A stretch of 64,000 nucleotides of DNA, from contig JALAGF010001625.1 in assembly GCA_030167865.1 (NCBI GenBank), positions 1-64,000 of the forward strand, written 5' to 3'. The DNA is from Craspedostauros australis (lineage: Eukaryota). Of this stretch, positions 4,018 through 59,725 are shown piece after piece. The position numbers were made by a program, and so were the translations under genes. The notes beneath the pieces were generated by a model. The model was not told the origin of the DNA. It was given only the letters and a program-made list of their open reading frames with translations, and made no database searches. The number at the start of each line of letters is the position of its first letter. Position 1 is the stretch's first letter.

Positions 4018-7000
4018 CTAGATGATGCTATCTCCCCCAGGCGCAAGGTTTTCCATCTCTGGGTCGGTACCTTCCCGCAGCTGCCGCCGCAGGTACTCCA
4101 GGCTCGGCCGCGTGCTGGAGCTACCGTAGTCGATCTCCGACATCAACCGGACGGATTCGCTGCTCCTGCTCTTGGTCCGGAGGAAGGGCATCAATTTGCC
4201 CTTGCGGCCGTGCGATTGAGAAATCTTATGATCGATGCCCATCCCTTGCGACAGCCGCGTTCCTTTCGTGCCTTTCTTTCTGGTGAGTCCGTCAGACACC
4301 ATCGTGGACGTTCTCCACCTACGCCGATACCACACTATGGCGGCGCAGCAGAGAATCATGATGGAGCTCATTGCAACGATGATCCACATGCCGGACTTGG
4401 CCATGAGCATGCCGAACTTCTGATGTCCTGTCATGGATGGCTTCATTGGTCGACCTGCCTGAGGCGGCAGGACGGTTGAAGCGGGTGCCTGACACGCATC
4501 CAGGTCACCCAGCTTGCCAATCCAAGCGCATTTGATCCCCAACGGTTCGTAGGTCTCTGCCAGCATGAAGAACAGCTGGCGACCGGTTGTGGAAGTGACC
4601 GCGCCGTCCGTTTCGTCGTCGCTAGCAGCATCAATGTTCAGCATGCGATCGATGGTCTGTGCTGTGGACGGCGCGATACTGTGAATGATCGGAACCATCA
4701 TTCTCGAAAAGATGTGGGCCCGGATCATTTCAATTTCCACTGGGATGTTCTTCACGTGAGACGATGAAGATGTTGGAGTGGAAGAGGCGAGCGACACGGC
4801 GACGGTGGACCTCAGCATCCCTTGGATCATGGGGACCATGAGGGTGGAGCTGACTTGCTCCGTCGCACGTTGGAGGCCTTCGCAGTTGCGCGCCTTGGCG
4901 ATGTTCCTTCCCATCTCCAGCAACTTGATGAGCTTGCCATTGAGCTGAGCGTTGCTCTTGTTGGCGACCTGCCCGCATGTGCCAAAGTCTTCGCACAGAT
5001 CCTGAACCAGAGTGTACCACATGTGCCCATCTGATTTGGAACCGCCTTGTTCGGGCCCTTCCAAGTGACCGATCAGAATCGCAGCAGCATGGTCCCATGC
5101 AACCATGGAGTCGTATGACACGCCGTTGCCTTCGCATCGTTCCACGGATTGGTACAGGTTACGCAGCGCATCGAAGAAGACCGTGTATACCTGCAAACTT
5201 CTGGTAATGATCTCTCGTCGTTCTGAATTCTTCCAGGGCGCCGTCGCGTCCAGTGCGGACCTGATCATTTGCCTCATCGGATCTTGGGCCTTGAAGTACT
5301 CGTCGTACTGGACGAAGTGTGGCACGATCCGCAGCCCGTTCGTATTGGCTGTCAAGTGATGCAAACTTCGACTGGCGCCATCAACCTTTCCATTTTCCAA
5401 TGATGACAACAAAGGACCATGATGGCCAACATCGTAGATTTCGCTTGCGGCTCTGTAGGCCTTCATTTCGAGCATGGTGTCCAACTCAGCAGCATCTAGA
5501 TCCAAATGTGAAATCTGGGCCAGAATGACAACGGGGATGGAGAATGCCGTATATCATTCGTAGTGTTTTTTGTTTTTCCAATGCGGGTAAATGACATGAA
5601 ACGAAGTGAAATAGAATGTGATGGAATGAAATGATGGTGAGCAGGGGTTTGAGCTGGCCGTGCACATTGAATGAATGTGATTAGATTTGGCTGATTGCCG
5701 TTCATGATCACTCGCTCTCCCAAAACAAGCAAGGATTGCATTCGCAGCCCGTGTAGTCTTCATCAACAACAGCATGGCGTGGGGAGCGACGCAATAAGGT
5801 GAAAATCAACGCAATTGATGCGCGCAACGTATGCTCGCAACATGCAGCAGAACATCCAGCTCTGTGTTGCACATCACACGCTGCTTACCGTCTGCACGTT
5901 GCTGATCGGGCGATACCCAGCCAAGGAAACCAGCGGGTCTGCGTTGTGGCAGTGCAACCGGTCGGTTCCAACAGGACCAACCAAAAGATGGGCCCCAATC
6001 TGTTTGCAGGCCAACCCTAGGCAAGGCAAGGAGGACTGTATCATGGCAAAGATCTTTCCGAGATCAGACACTTCGTAGTTCCCGCCCAACAGTAGCTCCT
6101 TCAGTTGGCTGAATGTGTCGTCTCCGCATGTCCTGATCAAGGGGACGAACGCATGCGAGTACAGCTGTACTGCGTGACTATTGCCGACTCGAAGGGAATG
6201 GATGAGCCCACGGACGATGGGGACCGTCATGTCGGATGTGATCTTTTGCACAGCGTCATGCAACTCGAGAACACGGGCGTATGACGAAGAGGTGCAGTTC
6301 GCCATTGAGTCCAAGACCAGCCAGGCTTCTCCGACGTGAGCGAGCAATTCTTTGCTGGTGCCAGCGTCCGACTTGCCAATGGTTTCGAAGTGGCGGGCAT
6401 TCGTTTCGGATACGAAGTGCATGGACTCGCCGGTCCTTTTCGAATTTCCCACCACGGCACCACCGAACCACAGATCGATGGCATCAAGCAACACATCAGC
6501 CGGGTTGTCATCGGAATCGGTATTCTGACCGTCCGTTTCAGTGCATGCGTGAAGCACGTTGTGTAGTCGGTGGATGATGTACATCCACATGTTCAAAATG
6601 ATGCTCGCCTCCGAAGTCAAAACAGCAGAATCTCTCGATTTGAACATCTGCTGGATGACTTTGTCGGCATAGTTCCGGCTGGCTGCCATTCCAATCCCTG
6701 TTTTGGTTCCGAAAGTGTCCAAGAACTTCATGAACACAGGCTCGCCGAGCATATTGGATGTTTCGTCCGTCGAAAGCGTTTGCAGAGTTGGGTAATTTTC
6801 CGTGGAATCCGGGATGACGATTCCCAGCTCGTAGATCCTGGCGGCTTCGGGGATGTTGCCATGGTTGAGGCTGACCCTCATCGTCTTGACGTCTCTTGCC
6901 AGCTTCTTCGACTTGGCAGAGTGAGAAACAAGACTACCTCCCAAGTGTTCCATGCTGGATACCAGCTGCAGCTCCGAGAGGCACACCGGACCGAATCGGG

Positions 7001-10000
7001 CATTGCGATATTCGCCGATCTGCTCGCAATCAACTGCAAGGTCGTGGATGCCTTGAGCCATCGCACGGAAGGTGATTTCTGTGTCGACATTGTGCTTCGC
7101 TGCTGTGATGCTTGGAAAAGCCAGTTCGATCAATGCCGCATTCGTGCTGTTGACGATGCTCATCTCCGGTAGGATGGACCGCGACAGAGTGTAACCGGAC
7201 GAAGTAGCCCTTTTCTGTGCCATCGAGTTGAAGTTCGACCCGTGAAGGATAGCAGCATAGTGCCACGTTGCTTGAATCATCGGGACGTACAGCTTGCGCG
7301 GGAGGACGTAGTCGAGCATGTCCTCCAGTGAACCGCATTGCGACTTCTCGATGTATTCCTTGGCGGTTTCGAATGCCTTGAATATCTCGGTGTTCACCAT
7401 GGCATGGCCAGAGGCGTCGCAAGTGCCAAAGCTCTGGCAGTGCTCGTCGCCGAGCGAGTGCATCGAAGAACCTTGCAACGGCATCACGGAGCTCTCCATG
7501 CCGTCGGTTCCTTCCAGTTGCTTCGATCGGATCTCGTTGCCAGATAGTCCCATGTACAGTTCTTCTGCAAAGGCTAGTTTCGTATGAGCCGAATCCTGGA
7601 ATCCATTCCAGCACGAGTGCACCGCTCCCTTGATCAATGCCATCGCTGCCATGGGTGTGATCAGCGATTGGAACGTTCGAGTGGAAACGTCCGACGTTGT
7701 CTGACCTGGGAGGTTGGAATTGCGCCCATCCTGCTCCATCAGATCGAGCATCATTTCGTGAGCGTACATGTCACTTCCGAAATACTGGGAGAATGCATCG
7801 AAGTGGGTGACATTCGCGCGGCCCGGCAACGTGGCCAAATCCTTCAAGGTGACGAAGAATCCATTCGAGAGCAAACCGCCATGGCCGTGCTCGTAGCAAT
7901 CCAGAGCCGCACGAGGTGATTTTGCTCTGAAGAAGACGTCGATTCGTTTGACGTCTAGCTCCATGCGAGCGTACGCGGTTTGGTTGTCGATTGAAGTGCT
8001 AGGCAAGGACTTGATGACCATATGCGGCTCATCGGAGCACAGTTGATCCACAAACATGCGCAGTCCAGCGTTGGCAGAGCTTGAATTGGTCACAGCGATA
8101 TCCTGGCACGTTATCTCCAAGCAATCCAGACAGCTTCGAAGGGCTGACATGACCTTCTTCGATAGCCTTGTGGCGCTGAAGTTGACGAAGAATGTTTGGC
8201 TTAGCTCGTCGAATGCAGCCTTGTTGCATGCGGCGATATACGGGAATATGGCGACTGAATAGAGCTCAACGCGCCATGTGTCATCCAGCGCAACCGCATG
8301 CATCAGATGTTGCATCAATGGGATCGTCAGAGACTTGATGATCTGATTCGTCTTCGCGCGCATACTGGAAGGAGCGAGTGCGTCCACATCGCACGTCTGT
8401 GCCAACGATTTAAGGTCATTGAACTGGAGCGCAACTTCTGAATTCAATGGAGCCTCGTCACCCGTGTGTCCAAACATTGTGGATGCCGTCTCTATCATCG
8501 AGTAGAGCAGCCATCCGTTGGCCAACGCCCCGCTATCGACGCCCTTTCCGATCCACAGTGCGACGGCTGCGTCGATATGATGAAGAGGTTCGTTGCCATC
8601 GATGCATGCACGGACGGCTGCATGGAGCTTGTGCGTGAGCATCATCCACACGTTGAGCGCAACGCTGGCTTCTGCCGCGAATTTCGTGTCATTTCCTGAC
8701 CGGAGTGCTTCGCTAACAATCTCATCTGCGAAGGCGTACGAGCGGTCTGTGGAGAAATCGTCTTCGCTGTACAGACCGAATTTGAAGATGTTGAACACCG
8801 GGTCGTCGCTCATATAGAACTGCGCTCCCACGCTGAGCGATGATAGACTGCGGAAAGTGACCTCGTCGGCAAATCCAGATGCGGTCGCGTGTTTGCCCTC
8901 GCGGTAGATGGAACGAGCTTCGTCGGTGCTGGCTGCATTCGTCATGTCGCGCACATCCAGAGCGAACGATGCGAATCCGTTTGCAATTTGGGCATTTGAA
9001 AACTGAAACCTGCTGTAATACAACGCAGGTTGGCCATCGGTCGTCTCCGATACCTGTGTTAGGGAGACCGGATTATTCGCCGGGTTGGAGAGATCGGCAA
9101 TGGCATCCGTGGTGTTGGCGTTGGCGTTGTTTTCGAGGACCGGTGAGAACGGAGTTGTGAATGCCGTCGTCGGTTCCAGCGTCGATGTATCGATGGACAC
9201 CGTTTGCGTTGGCGTTGCGGTCGGGAGGCGCGTTGGAGAGGGCGTCGGAGAACGTGTCTGAAAACGTGTCGGAGAATTCGTTGGCGATGATGACTTTGTC
9301 ACGGCCGGCTTCAGTGATGCCTTGGAAGTGGAGTGGTGAAACAAAGTCGACGAACGATGCAGCCGCGTCGGAACCTGCGTTGGGACAAGCGATGGTGTAT
9401 CTGATGGGATGAAGGATGGTTGATCTGTTGCGCTGTTGGGCGCTGATGCCTCCGAAGCCGATGCGGATGAGGGTGGTGATAACGTGTCATTCTGTGACTG
9501 CAGGGTGGCGGAACCAGTGGAAACCGCTGCTGATGTTGCATTCGACGGTCCCATGGATGGTCCCATGGATGGTTCCTGGTTTGATGAACTGGCCGTAGTC
9601 ATGGTGGTTGGCGGCGAGGTGTTCACGTTTGCATCAGCCTCGTCTATCCCTGTTCCATCTTCGCCCGCAGCCGAAGTGTTTGGATCCCAGACGCATCCTT
9701 CATTGCAGACCGTGTTTTCCGGATCCAGTTCCCAGTTCCCAATGCCCTTGCAGTCGATCGCAAGCTTCGTCACGGAGGTTTGCAAACTGCTGACGATGGC
9801 TGAAGTTGGTCTGTACGTCGATTGTTGTCCCGCATCCATCATCCAGCTCTTCTGCAGCGTGGCGATCGCGCTGGAATCAACCTGCTTGATGATGGGCTGG
9901 ATGCTCATGGCGAAAGCGTGGGCCGCTCCTTCGACGTGATCCTTCGAATCATTCAGAGGGTTTTCGGACAGGTCGGCAAAGGCAATGTATCCTTGAAACA

Positions 10001-12556
10001 GTGGAATGTGTAGTAGGGGGAGAATATCTCGCAAGGTTGATGCTTGTACCGTTGCGCAGTCCTCTTGGTGGAGACGCTCTCGGTTGCTTTGGAACAGCTC
10101 GATCAGTTGGAGGTTGGAGTTCGACTGCCTGTGCTCAACATCGACCGCGCACGTTCCAAAAGCCTTGCACAGTTCCTTCGATGTTGCGTACAGATTTTGG
10201 CCGAAGCTCGATCCGTTGGTGCTCTCCATGGAACCCACGTAGAATGCCACGGCCTCGTCCCATGCGCGCACGCTGGATTCGACTTCGTTGTTGAGGCACT
10301 TTTCGATGGAGGTCGAAATTGAGGCGGTGATGGACATCTGCAGCAACACAGAGACTGCCAATCCTGTAATAAGTTCGGAGGCGTAAAGGTGGGAGATTTT
10401 GTTGAACGGCGCGTTTCGTTGCAATGCGTTGGTGATGGTGTAGTCCGCATTTAGCAGCATGCTGCTGTCGAACATGGCTTTGTACGGGCCAAGGTGCGAC
10501 TGTCGCGTGGCCAGCTTGCGCGTGGCAAGTTCGTGGAGCGAATGCGGCGCGGTCGCTGTTGTGCCGTACAGGTACACATCCAGCGCAGCGTCCATCGCGT
10601 CTCTGCCAATGAGAATCCCCAGGTGTCTTACATCGCGATCGATTGTCGACGATGAGACGAACGATTGCTCTGGAGATGTGTACCCGCCAAGCGTGATGGA
10701 CGTGGTTGGTTCGTCGTTGCATTGGCCAGCTAGGTCAGACGCGTGTGGGTGTTCGTTGTAGCTTCCAACATCAGCGCATCGGACGTGAAAGCACGTGGCG
10801 TACGTGTTCTGCAGCGCTTGGATGGTATTCTTCTTTTCTTCATCGCCGCTCAGGGTGTTGAGCGCTCCCATGTTGAGATAGTCTTGGAAGGTCTGTGGAT
10901 CGCATGCCATGATCCGTGGGATGATGCTAAGGCCGTAAATGTTGATGAAGTCGGGCATGTTCTCACTCTCCTTGTTGGCGATATGGTGGATCATATTTTG
11001 CAAGAGAGGGACCGACATGAAACCGATCGTCTCGAGAATGGAGTCGCGGAAACTTGATATACTCACAGTAATGGCAGCGGTGACGGTGGTCTCCGTGGTC
11101 GCCAAAATATCATGGTCGCCGTTGCTGCTGCTGCAAACTTGTCCGGCGCTGAGCTGCTGCTGCAGTTGGTTGAATTGCTGGATGATTCGTGTGTTCATCT
11201 TTGCTTCTCCAGAGTTGTCATCATTCGTCGAAACGCTGGCGTCCGAATCGATTTGGTTGAATCGAGCGCCGGCCTCATGCGCCAAGTTGTACAACGAGTA
11301 TCCATCCTGCGGCAGCCCGATCCAGAGTGCGGCTGATCGGTCCAGCGCCTCGGTTGCAGTTTGCGGGTCATGATCCTGCGTGCACGCCGTGTACATTGAC
11401 CAGAGCTCATGCACAGTCGCCATCCACACGTTGAGTATTTGTATCCCTTCGATCACGATGTTGGGGACATCGATGATGAAGAGATCACGGACGATGGCAT
11501 CTGCATATTCCTCGACCGGCTGGCCTGCGAACTGTCCCATTTCTTGTTCCCCATATCGCTGTCCAAGGTCGTTGAAGGCGTACAGGTAGAGATTGTAGAT
11601 GAGATCATCTCGCATCATTTCCCCCGATGCTGTGCTTAGATCTGCATACGACATTGATTCTCTGCGCAATGCATCAGAGAATGCGATTGATCGCGCATTC
11701 GTATTGTGCGAGTCGAATGATTGGTGGCACACATGCGTGAAAGAGAGCACAAAGTCGAGTGTTGTTTTGGATGATGAGTCAGTGCCAGTCAGCATTGACG
11801 ATCAATGGCCAGAACTTTCGAGTGCTCCACTCTTTTCTCTCTACATAGTGGAGGGAGCAAGTAGAGTGGGGCGGAGCAGAATGGGGTGGAGTCGAGCATG
11901 AAAAATAGCTTGCAACAGGAGAGCGGCAGTATAGCGGGGGGCGCCGATCAATTCACAAGCCATCTGAAACACGATAGCCTTACCTTTCCTCTGTTTGTTG
12001 ATTCCGTATTATGTACCCATTACGTCCCTGTTGCGTGTTGCGTGTTGAGAGCGAGGGCGCCGGCATGAGCACGATAATTTGAAAAGTGGAGTGAGAGTGA
12101 GAGTGAGAGTGGGAATTGCGATAAGAGAAGAGTGGAGTGGAGTGCAGTGCAGTGTAGTGTGAGGGCGTTTGTGGTCGAGAGATACGAGAAGAAAGCAATT
12201 GATTGGACGTTGCCAATCAGTCCATTTCCATCCATGCCAGGAGGTATCACCGCGAGGATTTGGCCTCTGTTCTTGGAGCTTACATTGTTATATATCTCCA
12301 TCTGAGCATTCGCGTCGCTGGCTTCGTCTTTTATCTGCCTCCCATCGAGGGAAAGATCGAGAATGCCTTGGACATCGGTGGATGCGACGTAACGCCCACC
12401 GAGCATCGATGTCCCGAATGCAGCCTCTGATTCTGATGCAGTTTGTGGTGCCGCTGCTGTTGTGTTTCCTGATGCAGCTGCTGATACTGACGCCAATGGC
12501 AACAGGATACACGGCGCTAGCATGGCATGCCACAGTGCCATCTTCGACTGCTTCAT
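4018..12556 (-). CDS. Giant multi-domain FEA1/ISIP2a (phytotransferrin)-like type I membrane protein, paralog 1 (about 2528 aa); exons 12556-12284, 12027-11984, 11661-5889, 5514-4018
   Basis: Signal peptide (MALWHAMLAPCILLPLASVSA). Six repeated domains carry motifs such as AWDEAVAFYVGSME, LYxxxxxxCxxFGTC, VPxIQGxL and CxxIG. A long S/T/P linker and a TM helix near 4325-4390 are present. All three GT-AG introns are phase-consistent (7587 nt total). Confidence 0.8.
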
Positions 12557-22850: not shown

Positions 22851-23102
22851 GCACCGGGTTGTGATAGGGCATTGCGAATTGCATGCCGCCTCTAGACGAT
22901 TGCATCCAAACACAAGGACTCCGTGATATTCTATGTACTTCGCTCTCTCAGTTTGCAGTTGTGCATCGCCTTTTGAGAGGCCCCCAACTGGATAAGGACA
23001 ACAGACACTTGTACTGGGGGAGCACGTCGGTTATGGTTTGATCTAACCTGATTTAGATTGAATAACGTTGGCCTCTTGACACCCAATTGCTCGGCCCTCC
23101 AA

Positions 23103-25455: not shown

Positions 25456-25716
25456 GGTACAATGCGAGCAGTAGTAGCAGAGCACTCAAGTGTTGCTTCT
25501 CACAGTTACAAATACTCTGTTATACACAAAGTGGAATTGTCGCTTTCTTCTGTCCTCTGGTGCATCCCGCGTCCCTTGCTCGTACCAGAGTACTTGTACA
25601 GGAACTCCACCAACAGTGTTGGCAACAGTCACAACAGCTGCTGCAACACTGATAACTTCTGTGTAACGTTCTCAATCGTTTAAAATACACATGCTGAGGC
25701 ATCAGCTACGAACACG

Positions 25717-32067: not shown

Positions 32068-32806
32068 CGTCCTATATGTTGATTCGTGTGGATAGCTGTG
32101 GATGAGAGATTGGCCCTCTCTCGCTCTCTCTTGACCAGCCTGTCGTCCTGCTATTGTGTTGGCGTCAATGCCAATGGAATCAATCTTGTGGAGTGATGGT
32201 GCAATCATTTTTGTTCTTTCTCGTTGCCGTGAGGAGCGTGGGGGAGGAAGTTGCGGAAACAGAGCTGATGAAGAACGCTCACATTTTGTTGGTGTTCGTC
32301 TTTGGGTTATGGGTTTTTGAGTCTACGCACAAACCTAGACGTGGTGTCGAACTGCGAAAACCAACGAGCACGAGCGTGCATGATACCAGGACAGCACTAC
32401 GATCGGTAACATTTGATTGCCAATGTTCTCACAATACATTAAGTTCACACGCTTTCAAGAGAGAAGACAGCACTGGGGATGAATTGACCGCCCTATGCTG
32501 TGGATTGCGGTTGCATTATGCAAGACCGTGATCTGGCGGCAATTGAAGAAGGTCCTACTTGTGCTCCACAGAGGCATCATGCACTTGACAGCGGCTGTGT
32601 GTGTACAGTGTAGTATTGGTCTGATGTTGCTGCTATGGTACTGGTACTGTGTTGGTTTAAGCATGTTGGGCTGTGTTGTGTTGGTGGAGTAGGAGGTAGA
32701 GCTGAGTGTATGTATAATGCTATATCACACTAGTACCGTGTTCATCCGCTGCTGCTCCATTGGTTTGAAAGACATGCGAGACTCTCTGGCTCTTTTGTGT
32801 TGCTGT

Positions 32807-40467: not shown

Positions 40468-41307
40468 CTTCCAGTCCTTTTTCTAGTCTTGATGCTGATG
40501 TTCACGCTGATGTCTCTTGTCAGCACAATGCTGGAGCTCCTGCTGATGCAAGCACAGTGGGCGGAGCTAGAACGAGAGTAATCGTACTCGTACACGTACT
40601 CGGACCACCAATTGGTTTAGGGCTCTTTCGATAGATGAGATGTCGCTTGAAGTTGAACGGCCGGAGAGAGTCGAATATTGGTGGCTTTGTGTCCAGATCA
40701 ATCAAGCAATCAAGCAATCAATCGGATGCAATCGCTGACTGCAAGTGTCACTGCAGACGGATGATGGATGGTGGATGGTGGATGAATGGGCGCAGGGATG
40801 GGTTGGCATCCGCACCAATGACAGCTCCTCCCTCATTTGTTCCCTCAGCCTTGCGCCTCCATTGACATCCAAACACGCACTGTTTGTGTTGAAATGGTTG
40901 ACACCTCCGACAAAAACGACACAGAAACGTGATGTTTTGTTACGTGGGCGGAATTCTGTCTCTTTGGTGGGAATGCGGCAACCATTTGCACGACTCACTG
41001 GAGCAGGACGATTGCACTGATTGATTACTACGATTAACAGAGTTAGGGTACCGTCCATGCTCTTCATCGTGGCGCTCGTGTCTGATCGTGCTGGGCGTTG
41101 CGATGCATCCAAGCAGAATAACATGGAGTAGAGTACTCTAGAGAGAGAGAGAGCAATAGTACTCGAATTATCTACCACGAACACGGGCATGATGCGAGGA
41201 GAGTAGCTCGCATGCGGAGCAGTCGTCGAGTGTGTTGGTCTGCGCTGCATCATGTTGAATTGCATGCGATACCCTACATATGCCTTGCGTGTGCAAGATG
41301 AGCGAGC

Positions 41308-44300
41308 TTACTGATTCGCCAAGCTGTTGAGATCTTGCAGGAACGACTCCGGGGACAGGAACTCAGTTGACCCGACGATGATCTCCTTCGATTCCTTCTC
41401 CATCACCTCGCGGCACACACGTAGCTCGGAGAAGCTGATCCCGCCCACCATGAACAACATGCTACGCGCACCCGCGAAAGTGGAGCCGAACTTGCTGGCA
41501 CCTTGCTTCGCCGTCGTTCTGCTCCACTTGGATGTCGCGCCACCCTTCTTCCTTGCGCTGCCCTCCGCCTTGCCACGTCTGCGCGCGCTCACTGCGGATC
41601 CTGTGCTTGCTGCCATTTCGGGCATGGGGACGACGCTGGGGTAGTCCTCGATGCTCAGCTGGTTCGTCACCAACTCGTTGCAAATCGACTTTAGGCCAGG
41701 GACGTAACGCATCGAGGTGTACTCGCTGTCGTCGTCAAAGGAACCGGAGCTGACCAACTTGCCCTTCCTGATGTGTGAGATTGTCACAATATAGTTGTTT
41801 TTGTTCACGAGTATGGACAGGGCCGATGGTCATGATCATGAGAGCGTTGTCAACGTCAAGCGGCAACAACCAAGCAACAGCGGCGGTGTTGTGACGATGA
41901 AGAAAATATCCATAATGGAAGAGAGGGGAGTTGGGTGAGAGTATTGGACGTGGCCATTAGTTGGTGACAATGCAGTCAGCGCCAGTTGCTTGCAATGGCA
42001 GTGATCACGCGGGCGTTGCCCTTGGATGGAGTAGCTTTGATTTCATCGCGCATCATCACAGCGGCATGATCATGCAAGTATCATCCTCGAGGCCGAGCAT
42101 TGGGAGTATGCTCCGCACAGCAGAATGCGTAGAGCACTCCATACAGTAGTTGTAGCGCAGGGAAAGACGAGAGGCACGAGACACGAGACGCAATACTGAT
42201 GGAGTATGGCATCGTTCGAACCAGAATCTTTGACGATCACGCAACGCAACATGGCGTAATACAACGGAACTGGTACTCACCCGAAGAAACGTGAGGTTGC
42301 AGTGGTGGGGGCTTCGTTGATGGTGGAGATTCCAAGCTGCTCCAAACTGTTCAGAATGAGCATGCCATCACGGTCGAGCTGCGCAACTCTGAGGACGCGG
42401 TCACGGTCACCGTGCGACAATCCGTTCTGGCTGATGGTGGTCAACAAGACGAGGCGCAGACGTGCGGCCGGGTCTGTCATGCGCACCAAGGTGGCCTCCA
42501 CCTTGCTGATCATCTCTCCCATGTTCGGCGTGTTGCCATCCTCATCCTTGCCGGTGGCCAAGGTTTGCTCGATCTCCGCCAAGTCCAGCAGGCCCTCCGT
42601 TTTGAATTTGCCCATGCATTCGTGCGAGATGTTCATGTGCTGGGACAGCTTGCCCATGACTTCGCGGTACTCTGGAAGCGCCTTGAGCGCGTTGGCCATG
42701 TCGGTGAGGGACATGGAATCGCCGCCGGACTTCTTGGTCAGGCTGGATCCCGTGGACGAGTTCAGCATCTCCTGGATGCGGGAGGAAACGGTCTCGATGA
42801 CCTCGGCGATGTGCTTGCCCCTGAGTTCCACCCACAGCTCGTCCTTTTCGTTGAGGAGGACGTCCTTGTCCTCCTTGACGTTGGGGTCATCGGCGGATTC
42901 CGCCTTGTACGTGATCTTGTCGCCCTCCATGCCCAGGAGGTCGTTGACCATGGCCTGGTAGGTGAAGTCATGCATGAGCGGCGTGAGGCAGTCATCGGAA
43001 CGATCGAGCAGGAGCAGGGTGGAGCGATCACGTTCTGCATGCTTGTTCTCGCTCTTGCCGCTGCCGTGATACCACCAGGTGGGGTTGGCCGCCACAAACT
43101 CGTCCATCTTGAGATGGAACAACGACGCCAGGCTGCTGCAGACGCTGGACGCGTCCTTGTAGCGGATGTAGGGGTACTCGTTCATGGTGGCACACACGGT
43201 GACAAGGCGTTCGGCGATGGCCAGCTCGATGGGGCTGGGTCCCTTTCGCGCGTAGAAGGCGGGGAAGGCCTTGGGCATGTAGAGCTGGAATGCTCTTTCC
43301 TCACGCGAGAGGAAGTTGACATTGACCTCCGTCAGGGCCTTGAGGCGTTTGATGAGCTGCTTGCAGCTCTTGATCTCCGCAAGGACCTGGTCGGGTATCG
43401 TGCCGAGGAAGTAGACGAAGACGCTCTTTCCGTACAGCACCTTCTCCTTGGAGGCGAAGTCCTTGAGGAGCTTGCTGACGCTGTCCTTGTTGGGCTCGAT
43501 GATGTAGATGGCGCTCATGTCGCGGAATGGCGCCCTGGCCTTGTCCAATGACTCCACCAGCGAGATCTTGCGCTCCATGATGTCGTACATTCCCACCGCG
43601 GACGAGATGACACGCATCGATGGTTCATCGACGATCAAAATCTTCCATCCCGAATCCGTCGCTGCGCTCCGTCAAAAACAACGCACGAACAGTACATTGC
43701 GTGCATGCACAGTCGAATCATCGAATGTGTGTACCACACACGAGCAATGAATGATGCGTCGCATGTGGCACGTCGACGTGATGGTTGCGAAGGTAATGCA
43801 CAGTAGTTGATGCGATGACATCGATGTCGATGTTCGTAGCGAATGCATGTGTTTTCCGTTCACGGCGGTGTCGAAGTTTGCATTCACGGATCACCATAGA
43901 GTACGTCGAAGCCCATTGCGCGAGTGCGCATTCATGCATTCATTCGATGGCATCGTTGAATCATTCAGTGCAGCATCATTGAGAGTGAGACCCAATCATG
44001 ATGGCATCATGTCAATAGACAAGTATTATAGAATACGAGCATGGATACGGGCACATCTCAATTGCACACCGAGATCATCAGCCAGAGATTCGAGGCAGCA
44101 TCGTTGCAAAGGTCAAGGAGAAGGAGAAGAACTTGCAAAGTGAGTCATGGAAATGTGAATTGTGCACAACATGGCAAGCTGGAGAATGGCGCGACGAGTT
44201 TCTCTGCACGACTTGGTTGGGGAATGTCACGTCTCCTCTGTGTGTCTGTCTGTGTTTGTGCACATATGGACGTGTGTACGTGTGTGTGGCTGCGGCGAGG

Positions 44301-44667: not shown

Positions 44668-46152
44668 GGTGCTGTTGCTGCTGCTGATGCTGCTCCTTCG
44701 CAGATCTCTCTCCTGTATGGCTCTCCGATCGGAGGATTCCCTTTGGTCTATTGGACAATGAGAGGAAGTGGTGCCCCTTGCTTGCCTTTCCTTTCCTTTC
44801 TTGTTCGCCTTCTGCTCCCGATCTTGCTCCTCTCTGATCTCTTGCTTTGGTCTTGTTGTTGGCGTTGTTGTTGGTTTTGGCTTTGCCTCCAACAAGGCGC
44901 ACCAGGATGGCGGGAAGCGAAAGCGGCGAATTGGATTCGTGTTGTTCCCTTGCGTTTCCTTGTTTTGCGGTGTCCTTTTGGCGTTGTGCTGTTACGGTCA
45001 CTTTCCTTTTCGTTGTGCTTCGTGTCGAACGAGTCGTGATGCCCAAAGCGAGCATTTCGATCGTGTTTCCGAAAACAGGAATCAACCTTGTCTTGGTTCG
45101 GCAATACTTTATGAATATATTTTAATCAACCGCAGCTTCCAAATTCCAGTCCCGATTTCATTTGGAGGGTACACAATACTGTTTGAGATATCCCGTTCAA
45201 GGTATCGTGTTTGTGAAACGCACATATCCACGATTTGGGCTCAGAATTCGCCATGGATGAGTCAGATGGGAAGGAACAACAATCAGCCATCACCAAATGC
45301 ACTCACACGCACGAGGACGGATGATGGCCAACAGCGAAGACTGTTGTTGGAACAATGGTGGTGTTGTCATGAAACTGAGAACTTTCGAATGTGTTCTATT
45401 GTCCTTCAGAGTGCACTGTGTGATGTGTCATCGATGCGCAGTTTGATGTGCTGACGCAGTTTGTGGTGTTGTGCACGTCATCGATAGGTGTTGCAAGTGA
45501 GGCCTCATCCATTCCTTCCGCCGCGATTATAGCCTCGCTCGCATCGTAGTGCCGCAGTGTGTGATATCCCTTGCACGACGGCGCTTCGAGATGATGGGGT
45601 GGCCACTGCCCATGCCAGACCAATCAAAACGAGAAAGAAGGGACACGTGATGAGTTTGTTGTGCCTCTCCAGTATGTTCGTATCTCTCTCTCTGTGAACT
45701 CTGACAGGAGATGACCGTTCGTGCGTCTCCGATGACGACACATGCCACGACCGCAACATCAGTGGTGCGCTGTTCACATGATGTGTGCTGTGCAATTGAC
45801 GTCACAGACGACTGTGATGTATGATGGACGAAGCGCGACGCATGATGATGATGATGGATCACTCGTGGGTGGCTATGTTCTCATTCGTATTCGTACTATG
45901 TTGTGGTGGAGTCCACATCATCCATCTTCTGACTCGGTCGTCCATCGCAACCATCGCAGCAGCGTGATGGATTCTCACGAGCTATGATCGAAATCGCAGC
46001 GCAAAGCGTGGTCGTTATCGTGGAAACGAACACATCAATTCATGGTGAGACACAGCATCACACATCGCATAGCCAACACCATCCGCCCCAGCCAGATCCT
46101 TCCTCACTTGCTCTCATAAAACAAACATTGTCTCAACACAAACCACCACCAC

Positions 46153-46153
46153 C

Positions 46154-46185
<32 letters not shown>
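46153..46185. repeat. (CAA)11 microsatellite immediately 5' of the LHC start codon
   Basis: Read directly from the sequence. Confidence 0.95.
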
Positions 46186-46196
46186 ACTATCCCAAA

Positions 46197-46982
46197 ATGA
46201 AGTTCGCCACTGCCACCATCTTTGCCGCCCTCGTTGGTGCCTCTTCCGCATTCGTCACCCCATCCGCCACCCTCCCAGCCTCTGCTCTGCGCATGTCCGA
46301 GACCCCATCCGAGGAGGTCACCGCCCCAGAGCCAGTTGCTGAGGTTGCCACCCCAGTTGCTCCAGCTGCCCCAAAGATGTCCGAGTCCATGCCATTCATG
46401 GAGCTCTCCCCCGCCCTCGACGGATCCCTCGCCGGCGACGTCGGTTTCGACCCACTTGGCTTCGCCAAGTCGCAGGCCGACCTCATGAAGTACCGCGAGG
46501 CCGAGATCAAGCACGCCCGTCTTGCCATGCTCGCCGCCGCTGGATGGCCAATCTCCGAGCTCTTCGACAAGAAGATCGCGGGAGCCCTCAACCTCCAGGC
46601 CGTCGTCGACGCCTCCGACCGTGCCCCATCCGTCCTCAACGGAGGCCTCGGAAAGATCTCCCCAATCTACTGGATCGCCGTCCTCGCCCTCGGAGCCGGA
46701 GTCGAGGTCATCGGACTCAAGAAAGCCAGCAGCACCTACCCAGACTACACCCCAGGTGACTTGGGTTTCGACCCACTCGGTGTCTTCCCAAAGACCGAGG
46801 AGGGCAAGAAGTGGTTCGAGCTCGCCGAGATCAAGAACGGACGTCTCGCGATGATCGCCATCACCGCCTTCGCCTTCCAGGAACTCGTCACTCAGGTCGG
46901 TGTCGTCGATGAGACACCAATCTTCTTCAAGCCACTCGGAACCGCCCTCAGAGAGGCCGCCAACGCTGGATACATCCAGTGA
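46197..46982 (+). CDS. Fucoxanthin-chlorophyll a/c light-harvesting protein, probably Lhcz-type
   Basis: ASSAFV presequence; motifs GDVGFDPLG, REAEIKHARLAM and AEIKNGRLAM. DRAPSVLNGGL suggests the Lhcz clade (subfamily call less certain). Confidence 0.93.
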   Translation: MKFATATIFAALVGASSAFVTPSATLPASALRMSETPSEEVTAPEPVAEVATPVAPAAPKMSESMPFMELSPALDGSLAGDVGFDPLGFAKSQADLMKYREAEIKHARLAMLAAAGWPISELFDKKIAGALNLQAVVDASDRAPSVLNGGLGKISPIYWIAVLALGAGVEVIGLKKASSTYPDYTPGDLGFDPLGVFPKTEEGKKWFELAEIKNGRLAMIAITAFAFQELVTQVGVVDETPIFFKPLGTALREAANAGYIQ

Positions 46983-52377: not shown

Positions 52378-55300
52378 ATGCTGTTCCGAATGACCGCAGC
52401 CTTCGCGCTGCTGGGATTGCCAGCAAATCCGGTGCTTGCGCAGACGCAGTCGCTGCTTGGAGGCCGGTATACGACCACAGCAGATGTGTCTGGAATTCTG
52501 CAGCTGGCGCAGGACACTGTGGACATGAAGGAGACATCAGATACGGAAGAAAAGGCCACCATCTATTCCCAAGGTCGTCATGCCACCAATGGCGGCGCCA
52601 ATGAGTGAGTCATGCAATTGTGCCCAAGATTTGCTTGTGGCCATCACCTAGTCTGCCTTGATCAGCATCTGTGTGTTCATGTTCACGGCATCATCCACGT
52701 CCGTATTCATGAGCAATACGAATGCTTCTGTGGATGCTTCTGTGGGTGCTTCTGTGGGTGCTTTTGTGGATGCTTCTGTGGGTGCTTTTGTGGATGCTTT
52801 TGTGGATGATCACACACCAACATTCAACAACTCCACAACTCCATACACTCACCATGTCTTGAATTCTTTGTCACACAACACGATTGTGCAACCAACCTTT
52901 CCGTGCGACACTTGCACTATGCCAACCCCCCAACGACATGCACAATGCACACTGAACAATGCACTCCCCCACTCATGCTCCATCAAAATATCAACACAAT
53001 ATCAACACAATACTCGCGCTATGCGTTACCTCTGGTCTTCTCTGCAACGATGAAATCACGAACTGGCGATCTGACCGAAACTGACCGAACTGACCGAAAC
53101 TGACGAAATACATATGATCCAATATACTTCATCGGAAACTCGCTTCGCACAACCAACAAAACAACCAAATATTCTACAATACATGACACCATACTCAATA
53201 CCCAATTCTGCAATGCATCGCAGCGAGAGGCTATCGTTGGCAGATCTCAGTCTGGAGGCTGGCAAGGAAATGAGCAAAACACCATATTACAATATCTACC
53301 GCCACGGGTTCCTCGTGCTCGGCGATGTCGACGAGGGGGAACCAAATGGCAACTTCGACGGTCAGCCCGCATCCAATTACGCCGACACCATCGTCAACGA
53401 TCTCTTCGACCTTGATATTCCAAACATCGAGACGGATGCGGCCCTCGTCATGAACGTCTGGATGGCGGCCGTGCACGAACTATTCCTCACCGCAAGAGAA
53501 TGCAAGGCCAACAACCCCGACCGGGCGCTCGAGAATCTGGACCGCTCCATCGCCCTGTGGATCGGTGACGGCGAAGTGCAAGGTCAGAACGACAGGGGGC
53601 ACATGCTCTACAACCTGGCACAGAAGGTGGGCACCAGATTTGGCCAAGACGGACCAGACGGAGAAACCAAGGTCAACACCGACCTCATCAACAAGTTCCT
53701 CATCTTGCAGGCGGACATCAGCCAAAACAACAAGTGCGCCGAACCCGCATACTACCTGACGATCCGCAAGATGGTCAAGGACATGATCTCCATCATGACG
53801 GTGCCTCTGGCGCAAAACCTCATCCATCATCTGTGGAACATCGAGAACGAAGGCAACTCGGATCTCATCGAGCTATACGCCCTCTCCCTCCTTCCGCCTG
53901 TGGCGACGTGCGACCCTGACGTCTACAGATCGGAGCTCAGGCACACGGTCCTCAAGACCACAGCGGTCGCCGACAGGGACGACGCCATCAGCGAGCTGCA
54001 ACGGGCCTTCAGCTGCCTCGGCATCACCTGCGAAGACGTCGGTGCCTACAAGGGCAGCGAAGTGCCACAGTGCACCGACCCCGTCGGCCTCAACCTGGTC
54101 GGCTACTCCTCCGATTCCAGGGACACCGCACGCATTCGCTCCTACGTCGATCGCGACATCTCGCAGATCGGCGTCTTCATCAAGTTCGAAGACATCGGCA
54201 GCGCCATCGACTGGTACGAATTCGGATGGAACTCCAGAACCACGACCCTCCTGGACCTGGCGCAGAATGCGCTCTTCTCCAGTTCCGAAAATTCACTCTT
54301 CACGACGTTCCAATCGTACTACAACGATCCCATGTTCGCTCATGACTTCATCATGTCCGTCCTGCAACGCACGGGCCCCAACTACGTCCTCGCATCCACC
54401 CAGCAGGTGCGCCTGCTCGTCACATCATACCTCCAGTACGTCGTTCTCTTCTTCTCAGCCACGGCCTCTCTCGAGGCAGCCGCCACCAACTGCGGCAGGG
54501 ACCAACCCCTCGCGCTGGAACATCTGGATTCCGCCGTTGCCTACTACGCTGGCAGCATCGAAGGTCCCGAACAGCAGGGCAGCTCCGAGGATGCAGGCAC
54601 CTTGCTCTTCAGCGTTGCCAAGGACTACTGCGCCGAATTCGATACCTGCAACCCTTCCGTCTCGCAAATCCCAATCGCCAAGGCCAACGTACAAATCATC
54701 GAGGGCTTCAAGCTGTCCGCAACCAACATCAAGGCCTCCAACTGCGATGCCTTCGAAAAGTCCATCGAGGACGTCTTCGGCCGCTACATCCCCGTCCCCC
54801 TGTACCAAGGACTTCTGCGATACGCCTCCATCAACGCCAACCTGCCACCGGGAACTTCCGAGAACGAGAGCCTCAGCGTGGGATTCGCCTTCTCCCAGGC
54901 GCTCCTTCCCATCATCAACTACGCCAGCGAGGACTCCGCGGTCATCATCGGCCGCAACATGAACTTCGACACCACCAACCCAGTGCAGGATGGATTCGAC
55001 GCTGTGGCGGATGCTCTGCGTTCTGCGATGGCAGGTCTGGAGACCAAGTGTGGCGACATCGGCGTGTACAAGGATGCGCCCTCATCCGGCGATCTCTGCG
55101 CATCCCGCGTCATGCCCACCGTGGCGCCAGTCTCACCACCCGTCATGATCCAGCCAACCTTCGCGCCTAATCCAGATCCCACCTTCGCACCCATCGGCGA
55201 CGTGCACCCGACCCCGGCCACCATCGACCAACTGGCCTTTGGACGCTATACATTCAAGAGTTTGAATTTTGCCACTGCCGACGCTGCATTCGCTGATGAC

Positions 55301-58300
55301 ATCAAGGCCATGTTCCAAGCGGAGGATGCGTCCGCTGCCCAGGAGATCTACACCAACGGAGGCAACACTTCCTCCGAACCATTGTCGGGGGAGATCGGCG
55401 TGACGACGCTGTCGCAGCTGAGTACCATGGCAGTGGAGTACATGTCCAAAGACCCCATGTTCAACATCTTCAAGTACGCCCTGTACGATGACGTCGATCT
55501 GCCCGACCAAGACGAGACGGATTTCATCTACGCGGACGACATGGTCCAGGAGGCTCTCAGCGTCCCCGAGGATCCGAAGCTCGCAGCGGAGGCCGCTGTC
55601 ATCCTCAATGTCTGGATGGTCATCACGAACCGCCTGTACGGCGCAATTCGTCTCTGCAACAACGATGCGGATGCCAGCACCCTCATCGATTCTGCCGTTG
55701 CGCTCTGGATTGGCAACGAACAGGCAGAGGGCAAGTACGATCATGGATGGATGATGTACTCCATCGCGCAATCTGCAGCGAAGTACTTTGGACTGCCAGA
55801 GGCCGAGGCCAAGGTCAACACGAAGCTCATGGATCTCTTCAACGACGCACAAGGTATTGCCGCAACATGCCAATCTAGCGACACCGCAGTCCAAGAACTA
55901 CGCATCAAGAGCGACGAGATCATCCGGCTGCTCACCATCCCGCTCGTGCAATCCCTCATGTTCCACATGGTTGAGAACAACCGCAACATGGTGGACATGT
56001 ACGCTGTCGCTGTGCTGCCACAGTGCGTGGCATGCGACCCCACGGCTCATGACAACCTCATCGATGTCACGTACGATGACTACGACCGCGCCGACTCCTT
56101 CACGGACGAGATCAAGGACAGTCTTGCCTCGTTCCTGCGGTGCTTGCGCATCACCTGTGACGACCTCGAAGTCACCGACAGTGCGGGACAAGGCCTCAAA
56201 AACTTTGTCGATGACATTTGCGTCCGGTTGGACGATAGCAAACCAACGCCCATCGCTGGCTATGCACCCACCAACAACGTGGTCGAAGAGTCCAGGATGG
56301 ATCTAGATGTGATGCAAGTGCAGATCTTCATGACTACGAAGGCGTATGACGCCGCATACGACGTGTACACGTACGGTCGAAACAGCCTCATGGAAGATGG
56401 CAAATCGCTTCGCACATTGAAGCAGCTCGCCACATCCAGCGATCGTTCTTCGGTGGCCCTCTTCGATGGCTTCAAGACTTACTATGGCAACGACAGGAAC
56501 TTCGCCCACGATCAAATCAAGGCAGCGATGGCGCAGACCGGGATTTATGAAAATGCGGGCCGCAAGCAGCTTCAGCAGATTGTGGAGCGCACGTTGCAGA
56601 CCAGCGTGATGTACCTTGCGGTGTTCTGGAACCTCCAGCACGCACTCGACGCGTGCAACAACGATGATATGGAAACGGCATCGAAGGCGTGGGACAGATC
56701 CGTCGCGTACTACGTGGGCTCCATCGAAGGCCCGATGGCGGGCGGCCAAGAGGATGGCGACGGAGAGATGCTCTTTGCACTCGCGAATGAAATGTGTGAC
56801 GAGTTCGACTACTGCGCAGGCAATGGAGGTTCCAAGCTGAACGAAGACATGCTCAAGCACTTCCGGGACGGACAGGACGCCATCGCCCAAAAGCACTGCG
56901 AGACCCTCGAGCGCACCATGACGTGGGAGGTGCTCCCAACCGCCACCGTGCCACTCATCCAGGGAACGCTCTATTATGCCATCATCAATGACCAGGCAAA
57001 CATCACGGGAGAGGAGGCCAGCGTTGCTGCTGGGTCCGCGATTGCATACGCCGTCGGCCCGCTGGTGAATGCCGCCAACTCGACCAGCGGAGAGACGATC
57101 AAGCGCAACTTCGACTTCTCGCAGCCCGCCATGCAGGACGGTGCAGCGAAGGTCTTCGAAGCAATCACCTACTCGCTGAGGGGCATCGGACTGGACTGCA
57201 ACGACATTGGCAAGCCAAAGAACGGAGACGGCCTCGATCCGTGCACCGTTATGATCGATGACAACCAGGACGGCGTCACCGATGCCACCGTCAAGCCAGT
57301 CGCACCCCACCAGGACACCGAGACCAACCTCGGAGAAGGGCTGTACGTCGCCACAACCTACGTCGAGGATCGTGCGGACATCGCCTTGGACATCAAGGGC
57401 ATGCAGGGTGGATTGAATCAGAAAGAAACCGAACTCGCCAAGGTGATTTACGAATCCGGACAAAACTCCAACATCTACGACGAGAATGGCCAATTCGTGG
57501 CACTCCGGAGCTTCCAGAAGATGTCCACCGAGGAGACTGCCAATATGTCATTCATGCCACTGTTCAATGTCTTCATGTACGCGCTCCAAGACAGTGACGG
57601 AAATTTCGATGGCAAAGACGCTCGTCTTTACGCTGATACGTTGGTGCAGGAAACGTTCACAGTTGCCACCCAGCCAGGCGAAGTGACGTACTTGCCGGCC
57701 GAAGCAGCAACTGTCCTCAATCTTTGGATGTTCATCGTGTATACATTGGAGAAGACGCTCTCGCTTTGCGAGCAGAAGAAGATTCGGGGGGATGATGGCA
57801 TCTCCGCAATGGATGAAGCCGTCGCGTACTGGATCGGAGATGGTCAGATCGCCGGCGATGGAGAACGCGGGCATTTGCTGTACGCCCTCACCGAGAACAT
57901 GGCGGAAATCTTCGACACCGAGGTGGCTGGTCAAGCCAGGGCGAACACCAACCTCCTCAAGCTGTTCAACTCGGCCAAGAACGAGCTCTCCCTTTCCAAC
58001 GCATGCTCCAACAGCCCAGCCACGTACATCCAGCTGCGTGCGCGGGTTTACGACATCATCGGCCAGATGTCAGTGCCGCTCATCCAGGGCCTCATTGACA
58101 GTCTCAGGACAAACGACCGTCCACGAGTCAAGGTTTACGCTCACGCGTTCGTGCCCATGGTGTCGCAGTGCGATCCAGTCATCTTCGGATACCTGAAGGA
58201 CAAGCTCCTTGACATGACGTACAACGTCGTGGATGTGGACACCATCGTTGAAAAGGTTCAGACCGTGTACCCCTGCCTGGGACTGACGTGCTCTGATATC

Positions 58301-59725
58301 GGAGCCCATTCCAGCGCGAGGAATGATCTGGCAGCTGGCAACAAGGCCGAATGCAGAGATCCCAGCGTCCGCACGAAGATGGCAGGGTACGCGCCTACCA
58401 CGGATGTTCGCGAATTCGCATCGCTCGATCTCGACATCCTCCAGCTCGATATCCTCCTTCAAATGAAGGCATACGACGCTGCGAAGGAGGTGTACATGTT
58501 CGGCAAGAACGTCCGGGAGGAGGGAGCGAACGGAGGCAGCCTCAGCCTGTCTCACTTGGCCACCACATCGGAGCGTTCCATCGTCCCCGAATTCGATGCA
58601 TTCAACAGATACTTCAATTCCGGTGATTATGCAGACAAGATAATCTTGGATGCTTTCGATGGAAGCGACATGTCCGACGACGCAAGGCGATTGGTGATCC
58701 TTCGATCCTCGCAGGTCCTCGTCATGTACTTTGCCGTCGCGCAGGCAATCCTTGAGGCTGTCGATGAATGCGAAACCGTGAAGGCAGCAGTGTCCGCGAA
58801 TGCCGTCGGTACTCCAGGAGTCAACGCAGCCTGGGATCGTGCTGCCGCGTTGATGATCGGCAGCCTTGAGGGCAGCGAGAACAATGGCTCCGGCAACGGA
58901 TTCATGTTCTACAACATCGCTCAAGAGCACTGCGTCGAGTTCGGCACGTGCAAGTCTCCGGACGACAACTCCAGAGTGAACGAAGAAATGGTCACCCTCC
59001 TGTTCGCAGGACGCGGCGCTGTTATCTCCAACAGCTGCGACGCGCTGCGCAAGACGGCTGGCGAGCTGAAGGCTCTGACCCTGATCCCAATGATCCAGGC
59101 CACCCTCAGCTCCGCCCTTCGTCTCGGCCGAGACTTTTCCGCGGCCAACCGGGCCGAGGGCGATATCCTCGCGAAGTCATTGGTTCCGCTGGTGCAGAAC
59201 TCCAATCGCGATTCCGCCAAGGTTCTGTCCGACACCATGCTGAATCCAAGCTACGATTCCAGGAAGAAGGCTCGGATCGCCCCAGATGTCTTCAGCGCCT
59301 TGGCCAACGTCTACGGCGACCTGGACGTCGACTGCAACCTCATCGGAGACGCCGGAGGGTACGACGCCTGCAGCGGCGCTGGTGTCAGCTCGGACGGCAA
59401 GAACCCCGGTGTGATCGCTGGAATCGTTCTCGGCGTAGCAGCCGCGGTGCTGATCATCGTCGCTTGCGCATGCCGCTTCTGCAAACGCAAGAAGACTGAG
59501 CAGAAGAGACTGCCCGAGAACAACCCAACCTTCGTCACTGCCAACGGCGAACTGAATCACTCGATGGACCTGCTGACGAAGGCCTTCTCATCGAACTCGC
59601 ATTCGCGCAACCCAGTCGACACCGAGGAGATGAAGGGATTGAACGATGCGTCACCGACAGTCGATGATGACTTCGAAGAGTCGCCGGCACTTCTGTCGAA
59701 GGGCCGTGGCACGGACATCATCTAG
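52378..59725 (+). CDS. Giant multi-domain FEA1/ISIP2a (phytotransferrin)-like type I membrane protein, paralog 2 (about 2242 aa); exons 52378-52604 and 53224-59725
   Basis: Signal peptide MLFRMTAAFALLGLPANPVLA. Six repeats with motifs such as IAGYAPT..DLD, WDRSVAYYVGSIEG, VPLIQGTLYYA and CxDIG. TM VIAGIVLGVAAAVLIIVACAC at about 59411-59473. Phase-2 intron GTGAGT...GCAG. Confidence 0.85.
52723..52806. repeat. 12-nt minisatellite TGCTTYTGTGGR x7 in the paralog 2 intron
   Basis: Seven consecutive units read directly from the sequence. Confidence 0.95.

Follow-up and report, generated by a model that had tools for sequence, protein, structure and literature searches.

The founding members of the Pfam family Fea1 (PF07692), FEA1 and FEA2 of Chlamydomonas, are secreted proteins linked to iron uptake at low iron. 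They are soluble, periplasmic, and built of a single domain (the model has 359 positions), with no transmembrane (TM) helix, cytoplasmic tail, or repeats. ISIP2a, the phytotransferrin of Phaeodactylum tricornutum, belongs to the same family and combines a signal peptide with a C-terminal TM helix and a short tail; three papers place it at the cell surface and describe its endocytosis (PMC7676907, PMC7966952, PMC7972479). Here we describe two giant genes of this kind, gene A and gene B, which lie in the diatom Craspedostauros australis on the first 64,000 nucleotides (nt) of contig JALAGF010001625.1 (assembly GCA_030167865.1), a stretch referred to below as the window. In ISIP2a-like proteins, of about 550 amino acids (aa), the domain is single and an insert follows the N-terminal hairpin, whereas the window proteins have six domains in 2242–2546 aa and include a partner domain, here called A-type, that ISIP2a-like proteins do not have. 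Iron-carbonate binding has been shown for ISIP2a, whereas for the window proteins the analysis establishes gene structure, homology of the domains, the repeat layout, the pattern of conservation, and a predicted fold. We infer, at a probability of about 0.55, that genes A and B encode multivalent Fe(III)-capturing endocytic receptors, a reading in which the iron ligand, the surface location, and the endocytosis are all deduced.

Closer in build are the multidomain Fea1 proteins. According to a genomic study, the Fea1 domain multiplied several times, independently in different algal lines, giving even counts of 2 to 10 domains per protein (Lelandais et al. 2016, BMC Genomics 17:319, PMC4855317), and the statement recurs in a review (PMC7676907). 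Each window protein, with six domains, falls within this even-numbered series, and the even numbers arise because the domains come as pairs, as described below. As far as its accessible text extends, the 2016 study treats these proteins by phylogeny only, without A/B pairs, tail motifs, or a function for six-domain forms. One of them, Ot-Fea1, has two domains and belongs to a green algal clade; it has a signal peptide, where the window proteins have a signal-like N-terminus, and like them a C-terminal TM helix. Auto-annotated orthologs are already present in databases under names such as "low iron-inducible periplasmic protein" (P0005 and P0015, Nitzschia inconspicua) and "expressed unknown protein" (P0110, Seminavis robusta), with others in Fistulifera, Mayamaea, Pseudo-nitzschia, and Cylindrotheca; they have 2100–2260 aa and six domains and are 36–48% identical to gene B. 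A literature search, with subscription journals mostly outside its reach, found neither an experimental description of these orthologs nor a functional study of any giant Fea1 protein. This agrees with a first-pass annotation of the window, which knew of no functional description. The same annotation set the giants apart as a receptor-like, multi-lobed subfamily. Such giants are already on record, in 102 long relatives, 96 of them carrying PF07692, and in Lelandais et al. (PMC4855317). Overall, the giants are a widespread subfamily, already catalogued and functionally untouched, and the points of the present analysis that deserve to be retained are the pairing of A- and B-type domains in one module, the motifs of the tail, the predicted helical fold, and how far gene A has diverged. 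ISIP2b, examined as another candidate relative, was set aside, being a cysteine-rich paralog of pTF.CatCh1 and not a Fea1 protein.

Domain architecture and family membership

Both proteins have a signal-like N-terminus, three units that each consist of an A-type and a B-type half (about 700 residues per unit), one TM helix, and a cytoplasmic tail (Table 1). The N-termini are hydrophobic and, judged by eye as signal peptides, have small residues at positions −3 and −1 (VLA before Q in gene B, VSA before A in gene A). To describe the halves, 25 A-type and 25 B-type sequences were aligned, each set made up of 19 from related loci and the six from the window. A hidden Markov model (HMM) of the B-type domain recovers six domains in each window protein, including the A-type halves, which are absent from its own alignment, at E-values of 1e-11 to 1e-27. 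Comparison of the A-type with the B-type profile (hhalign) gives a probability of 99.8% and an E-value of 6.7e-29 over 246 columns, and by this measure the two domain types are homologous. Genes A and B align colinearly in BLASTP at 29–31% identity (E 5.6e-145 and 1.9e-73), and at 23–27% when shifted by one or two units; the higher identity in register indicates that the threefold repetition predates the split between the two genes. The coordinates and layout given in the first-pass annotation are exact by open reading frames (ORFs), BLASTP, the B-type HMM, and hydropathy. No Fea1-like domain gene beyond genes A and B was found in the window with the B-type HMM.

Assignment to the Fea1 family is direct for gene B, which matches the Pfam model in four stretches at 95.4 bits (cutoff 25; E 4.7e-27). 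Gene A gives no match to the model. Gene A is placed in the family because it is homologous to gene B (BLASTP 5.6e-145), has six B-type HMM matches, and has 13 relatives that all carry PF07692. Of the 25 sequences in each alignment, 15 B-type and 2 A-type ones match Fea1 at E<=0.01. The link to the ISIP2a branch is provided by P0245, a transcriptome-derived ISIP2a-like protein of 550 aa that scores 49 bits against Fea1 and is matched by the B-type HMM at E 1.7e-61. By eye, P0245 has a hydrophobic N-terminus, an N-terminal hairpin, an insert, one domain, a C-terminal hydrophobic stretch, and a short tail that contains APVF. The motifs GYxP..DLD, WDxAxAxxxGS, and VPLIQG occur both in the window domains and in P0245, as the first-pass annotation had proposed (it quoted the second as WDEAVAFYxGS), and its description of the repeats as Fea1/ISIP2a-type is borne out by the Pfam match of gene B and the B-type match to P0245. 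With six domains each, both proteins also have the receptor-like layout that it described, here of type I.

The conserved residues separate the two domain types. The aspartate of the WD motif is kept in 11 of the 12 window domains, the exception being domain 4 of gene A, and the glutamine of VPLIQ is likewise kept in 11 of 12, with an arginine in its place in domain 5 of gene A. (Domain 1 of gene A is misregistered in the hmmalign table; a regular-expression match to VPLLQ settles its glutamine.) The glutamate of xEG and the cysteine pair of C..F.TC are present in all six B-type domains and in P0245, and in none of the six A-type domains. Because of this distribution, the B-type domain is, on sequence criteria, the ISIP2a-like one and the A-type domain a reduced relative. 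The ISIP2a-like residue set (WD Asp, xEG Glu, the C..F.TC pair, an Asn, P..Q, and a terminal C...G) is complete in every B-type domain save for the missing Asp of gene A domain 4, and the invariant Tyr, Asn, and Gln of ISIP2a-like proteins are also retained there. Gene A keeps its cysteines and most core positions in all six domains.

Predicted fold

AlphaFold2 models of the third unit of gene B (57311–59398; 24-row alignment; predicted local distance difference test (pLDDT) 87.9, predicted template modelling score 0.90) and AlphaFold models of its last B-type domain alone (58394–59362; pLDDT 91.0) are almost wholly helical, and the A-B unit is predicted to fold as one body. Searches for a known counterpart gave little. 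A PDB sequence search returned no match for P0001 at E<=1, and for the B-type profile one chance match to a nanobody (E 0.12); Foldseek against the PDB gave no match at E<=0.001, whether run with the unit or with the single domain. The best scores of a wide VIA-align search, Z 8.7 for the unit and 7.8 for the domain, fall below the level that the tool treats as meaningful for helical proteins and belong to generic four-helix bundles (talin, catenin, FAT). Transferrin and periplasmic binding protein chains were absent from the matches listed for the predicted models. Imelysin chains recur as weak matches to one bundle (3n8u, Z 7.9 and Foldseek E 0.27; 3pf0, Z 7.1) that are not significant. In the ESM Atlas, the nearest named clusters outside Fea1 to the last B-type domain of gene B are bacterial DUF4856 (PF16148), at 0.86–0.87, below 0.9; P0245 gave no usable match there. 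Together, the DUF4856 and imelysin matches may be a lead to kinship with bacterial iron proteins.

This predicted fold touches on the reported ancestry of the family. Phosphonate-binding periplasmic proteins have alpha/beta folds. ISIP2a and transferrin have both been traced to proteins of this class, according to a review (PMC7676907), and the helical fold predicted for the Fea1-like domains sits badly with such a descent. A broader picture can be drawn in which the A-B pair, one complete and one reduced domain, is a fixed, heterodimer-like working unit, the giants are multivalent endocytic iron receptors distinct from ISIP2a, the domain is a cysteine-stapled bundle of helices unlike transferrin or periplasmic binding proteins, phytotransferrins resemble transferrin as structural analogues without being related to it, and DUF4856 and imelysin proteins are possible distant kin; taken as a whole, we regard this picture as tentative and somewhat doubtful. 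An analogy for multivalent capture is the triplicated transferrin of Dunaliella, reportedly a surface iron-binding protein with a threefold binding unit (Paz et al. 2007, as cited in a review). It differs from the window proteins in being a true transferrin with alpha/beta lobes, compared with their predicted all-helical domains.

A candidate iron receptor and its alternatives

Relatives of the giants are numerous. A search with the gene B protein (7999 candidates scored) found 102 relatives of 1211–3856 aa at E<=0.001, the named sources being Nitzschia inconspicua, Pseudo-nitzschia, Fistulifera, Mayamaea, a Bacillariaceae metagenome-assembled genome, and Thalassiosira exigua. The window's own protein was not among the matches, and since the closest is only 48% identical, the species of the window is not represented among the entries found. 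The search with gene A returned 13 relatives, none above 33% identity and all shared with gene B, and added Seminavis and Cylindrotheca. When 1.84 billion representatives were searched with a profile, 2396 matched at E<=0.001 (929 at E<=1e-30), with 1 to 11 matched stretches each. The longest, a Paulinella micropora model of 4250 aa with 11 stretches (P0114), also shows sub-threshold-stretch Pfam matches, POTRA among them, and could be the product of merging separate genes into one model. A word-based search with a single B-type domain found only 2 short matches, of which P0106 is 30% identical over 76% of the domain.

The tails were surveyed in 101 proteins, namely 99 homologs of at least 1500 aa and the two window proteins. 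By the hydropathy rule, 60 of them have a TM helix followed by a tail of at least 25 residues. Within these 60 tails, GE[LMFV][NS] occurs in 48, an end of two hydrophobic residues in 46, [NADS]PxF in 30, and NPxF in 20. The gene B tail (LPENNPTFVTANGELNHSMDLLTKAFS..., ending DII) has three of these features, NPxF, GELNHS, and the hydrophobic end. The remaining 41 proteins have no TM helix or a short tail and mostly belong to a class of about 1700 aa; they may be truncated gene calls. The proteins of this class (about 1650–1800 aa, covering 78% of gene B; for example P0016, P0017, P0036, and P0053) have five domains and no TM helix by the same rule, and they are either truncated calls or a soluble five-domain form.

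In the receptor reading, the products of genes A and B would be type I membrane glycoproteins belonging to the Fea1/ISIP2a (phytotransferrin) family, which enter the secretory pathway through their signal peptides and are held in the membrane by the single helix. The extracellular or luminal part would consist of three rigid A-B modules, helical bundles held by conserved cysteines, in which the three B-type domains would offer Fe(III) sites through the ISIP2a-like, carboxylate-rich residue set and the A-type domains would probably act as partner lobes. In animal receptors, NPxY/F recruits endocytic adaptors and a terminal hydrophobic pair helps export from the endoplasmic reticulum (ER). By analogy, the tail of the gene B lineage, with NPxF, GELNHS, and a terminal II or VV, could promote exit of the protein from the ER and let it cycle by endocytosis between the surface and endosomes, so that Fe(III) bound at several surface sites would be taken inside as it is by ISIP2a. 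Known family members are consistent with such a mechanism: in the literature, ISIP2a is described with "carboxylate iron-binding domains" and its C-terminus with an endocytosis motif, and Ot-Fea1, with its duplicated Fea1 domains, signal peptide, and C-terminal TM helix, was found iron-loaded (PMC4855317).

A number of observations weigh against the receptor reading. Gene A matches nothing in Pfam, with its ORFs at E<=1 or with its six domain pieces at E<=10. Taken singly, 2 of the 12 window domains pass Fea1, both of them B-type domains of gene B, and every A-type piece from the window fails. The conserved polar residues of the B-type domain are putative metal sites by conservation alone, and Ftr1-like R/K-E/D-x-x-E motifs are not enriched (3 in gene A and 1 in gene B, with 1.6 and 2.0 expected). 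No solved structure resembling the domain was found, and there is no site in the PDB that could be transferred to it. The NPxF motif is restricted to a third of the 60 long tails, and its endocytic meaning is borrowed from animal receptors. The promoter motif CACGTGYC, known as iron-responsive from work on Phaeodactylum, is missing upstream of both genes, a weak point given that the motif belongs to another species; the window as a whole has 4 matches where 8 are expected. Finally, an Ostreococcus member of the family responds to zinc as well (PMC4855317).

The last two points lead to the possibility that the same architecture serves a different ligand, another metal (Zn, Mn, or Cu) or an anion such as carbonate, with the proteins acting as sensors or scavengers. 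Levels of Ot-Fea1 follow zinc as well as iron (PMC4855317), the missing promoter motif fits this alternative, the giants form a large group of their own whose identity to single-domain proteins reaches about 30% at the most (as with P0106), and conserved carboxylates and amides are not specific for iron. However, every characterized family member found in the literature is tied to iron uptake, and the B-type domains retain all positions that they have in common with the ISIP2a-like protein. We consider a ligand other than iron unlikely.

Another alternative is that the giants are structural or adhesive surface glycoproteins of mucilage, raphe, or cell wall that recruited a helical domain and transport nothing. 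Their very large size and repeated modules could suit such a role, as could the 160-residue, mucin-like Ser/Thr/Pro-rich linker of gene A and its 17 N-x-S/T sequons, and the named relatives are mostly raphid pennates, many of them benthic (Nitzschia, Seminavis, Cylindrotheca, Fistulifera, Mayamaea). However, Thalassiosira, Paulinella, and the planktonic Pseudo-nitzschia have relatives too, and gene B has no such linker and 7 sequons. Polar residues are conserved inside the domains, and a trafficking-type tail would fit a receptor better than a matrix protein. A purely structural role seems distinctly improbable. The receptor, the other-ligand, and the structural readings, together with the view that the gene models are wrong (below), are mutual alternatives.

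Iron limits diatom growth across large ocean areas, and ISIP2a-type proteins serve as field markers of iron stress. The giants are a second widespread class, with three to five times as many binding domains per chain and a conserved trafficking-type tail of their own. If they take up iron, the way in which diatom iron-uptake capacity and marker transcripts are counted would change; in HMM surveys, one giant gene would count as one "ISIP2a-like" match. The alternating A-type/B-type module, about 650 aa long, is a defined and foldable construct with which structural and binding studies of the family could begin.

Gene models, the two paralogs, and their surroundings

The window is eukaryotic, about 54% G+C, and its genes are spliced. 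The first exon of gene B (227 nt) codes for the hydrophobic N-terminus and LLGGRYTTTADV...IYSQG, and it is joined in frame by a splice from GTGAGT to CGCAG to a main ORF of 2216 codons without stops; this N-terminal exon aligns with uninterrupted ORFs on homologous contigs. Within the intron, an imperfect short tandem repeat with units like GATGCTTCTGTGGGTGCTT lies at 52700–52810. Gene A has two open ORFs, of 1975 (11801–5874) and 511 codons. Its second intron is clean (GTAAGC...CCCAG, phase 0). For the first intron, only one GT donor is in phase, the weak GTATCT at 12185; GTAAGC at 12283 is a better site but does not keep the phase. Use of the in-phase donor leaves about 17 extra residues at the junction compared with relatives. 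This boundary is the uncertain point of the gene A model. The first-intron acceptors of the two genes (11661 and 53224) are alike in sequence context and phase, which indicates that the intron position is older than the duplication. At four related loci with flanking DNA (L005, L010, L017, L020), the long ORF opens no earlier than the LNLALD hairpin, and the first intron of the species concerned may accordingly lie further 5′.

These data also bear on whether the giants are several short genes or an assembly artifact. The splice sites are predicted from the sequence, which would leave room for such an error. Against it stand the stop-free ORFs of 2216 and 1975 codons and the organization of relatives: 12 of 35 related loci on metagenome contigs have six domains in one ORF, six contigs of 6.8–7.0 kb each carry a single unbroken ORF from signal-like N-terminus through tail, and several proteins of 2221–2246 aa come from transcriptome projects (P0011, P0062, P0112). 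The unbroken ORFs and the transcriptome-derived proteins together imply that the giant is one message in relatives, and the notion of wrong gene models is close to refuted. One further locus (L024:563-11764) encodes ten domains; its ORF, of 3734 codons, reaches the edge of the contig without a stop.

The two genes are paralogs, as first proposed, but not the product of a recent inverted duplication. In a FastTree phylogeny of 31 sequences (the two window proteins and 29 hand-picked homologs; 2100 columns kept), the two genes fall in sister clades, gene B together with Nitzschia and Pseudo-nitzschia proteins (support 0.999) and gene A together with P0034 and a pair of Cylindrotheca-type proteins (support 0.992). 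About 30% identity and the grouping with proteins of other diatoms indicate an old duplication. The branch of gene A is long (1.20, compared with 0.67 for gene B and 0.52 for P0034, its nearest neighbor), and long-branch attraction may operate between gene A and the Cylindrotheca pair. On these sequence criteria, gene A is an older, faster-evolving paralog, with two degenerate domains, a mucin-like linker, and a different tail, and its role is probably modified or reduced.

Whether gene A could be a decaying copy or near-pseudogene, with gene B alone functional, is a question compatible with every reading considered above. The long branch, the loss of the near-invariant Asp in domain 4, of the Gln in domain 5, and of the tail motifs, the missing strong canonical in-phase donor at intron 1, and the failure to find an ortholog above 33% identity would all fit decay. 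However, both of its long ORFs remain open, an in-frame GT...AG splice exists, all six domains retain their cysteines and most of their core positions, and the TM helix and the terminal II are retained. We regard decay of gene A as improbable.

Table 1. Positions of genes A and B, their domains and other parts, and neighboring genes in the window
Feature	Position	Strand	Remarks
Gene B, whole coding span	52378..59725	+	2 exons, 52378-52604 and 53224-59725; ATG at 52378, stop ends at 59725; 2242 aa; ORFs and splice search
Gene B intron 1	52605..53223	+	619 nt; donor at 52605, coding resumes at 53224; sequence read and splice sites; model from sequence alone
Gene B domain 1 (A-type)	52519..54058	+	residues 48-354, across the intron; B-type HMM hmmsearch E 1e-23
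Gene B domain 2 (B-type)	54113..55078	+	residues 373-694; D, E, and C..C residues kept; a row of the B-type HMM's own alignment, so a match by construction
Gene B domain 3 (A-type)	55271..56185	+	residues 759-1063; hmmsearch E 4e-25
Gene B domain 4 (B-type)	56267..57226	+	residues 1091-1410; Pfam Fea1 27.9 bits alone, profile 31-338 of 359
Gene B domain 5 (A-type)	57350..58318	+	residues 1452-1774; hmmsearch E 8.6e-27; part of the AlphaFold unit model
Gene B domain 6 (B-type)	58394..59362	+	residues 1800-2122; Pfam Fea1 29.5 bits; AlphaFold pLDDT 91.0
Gene B transmembrane helix	59402..59485	+	residues 2136-2163; Kyte-Doolittle 19-residue window, peak 3.02
Gene B cytoplasmic tail	59486..59722	+	79 residues; ENNPTF, GELNHS, C-terminal DII
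Gene A, whole coding span	4018..12556	-	3 exons, 12556-12186, 11661-5889, and 5514-4018; ATG at 12556, stop 4018-4020; intron 2 at 5888-5515; about 2546 aa; ORFs and splice search; exon 1 donor uncertain
Gene A domain 1 (A-type)	10749..11531	-	residues 168-428 (envelope; N-terminal hairpin further 5′); hmmsearch E 3.2e-11
Gene A domain 2 (B-type)	9723..10673	-	residues 454-770; WDEAVAFYVG and IPLFQ present
Gene A Ser/Thr/Pro-rich linker	9153..9632	-	between units 1 and 2; about residues 801-960; S+T+P 52-62% per 60-residue window; in gene A only
Gene A domain 3 (A-type)	8079..8996	-	residues 1013-1318; hmmsearch E 7.5e-19
Gene A domain 4 (B-type)	6999..8000	-	residues 1345-1678; near-invariant Asp gone (WD to LA); nine-residue insertion
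Gene A domain 5 (A-type)	5985..6929	-	residues 1702-2016; VPIVR in place of VPLIQ
Gene A domain 6 (B-type)	4501..5909	-	residues 2042-2386; across intron 2 (5515-5888)
Gene A transmembrane helix	4324..4395	-	residues 2422-2445; hydropathy peak 2.54
Gene A cytoplasmic tail	4021..4323	-	101 residues; basic, without NPxF or GELNHS; ends DSII
Golgin-like coiled coil	721..3613	+	
Tsr1/Bms1-like	29146..32322	-	
Kelch-BTB	38413..40482	-	
Sec1 family	42280..43671	-	
Chlorophyll a/b-binding	45933..46979	+	
AMP-binding DIP2-like	60311..63952	-	

Genes A and B stand head to head and diverge, their start codons 39,821 bases apart, in accord with the roughly 40 kb of unrelated genes noted at first. The interval holds genes for Tsr1/Bms1-like, Kelch-BTB, Sec1-family, and light-harvesting proteins and several ORFs without a family, and no iron gene was recognized in it. 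Several long ORFs within 17026–28077 are without a Pfam family. A small public sequencing run (X1; that it is RNA is only a guess) contains one contig of 708 nt that is identical to 59263–59800 and extends beyond. It covers the 3′ end of gene B only, with no splice site, and is uninformative on expression. The match does show that the organism or strain of this window has been sequenced elsewhere too.

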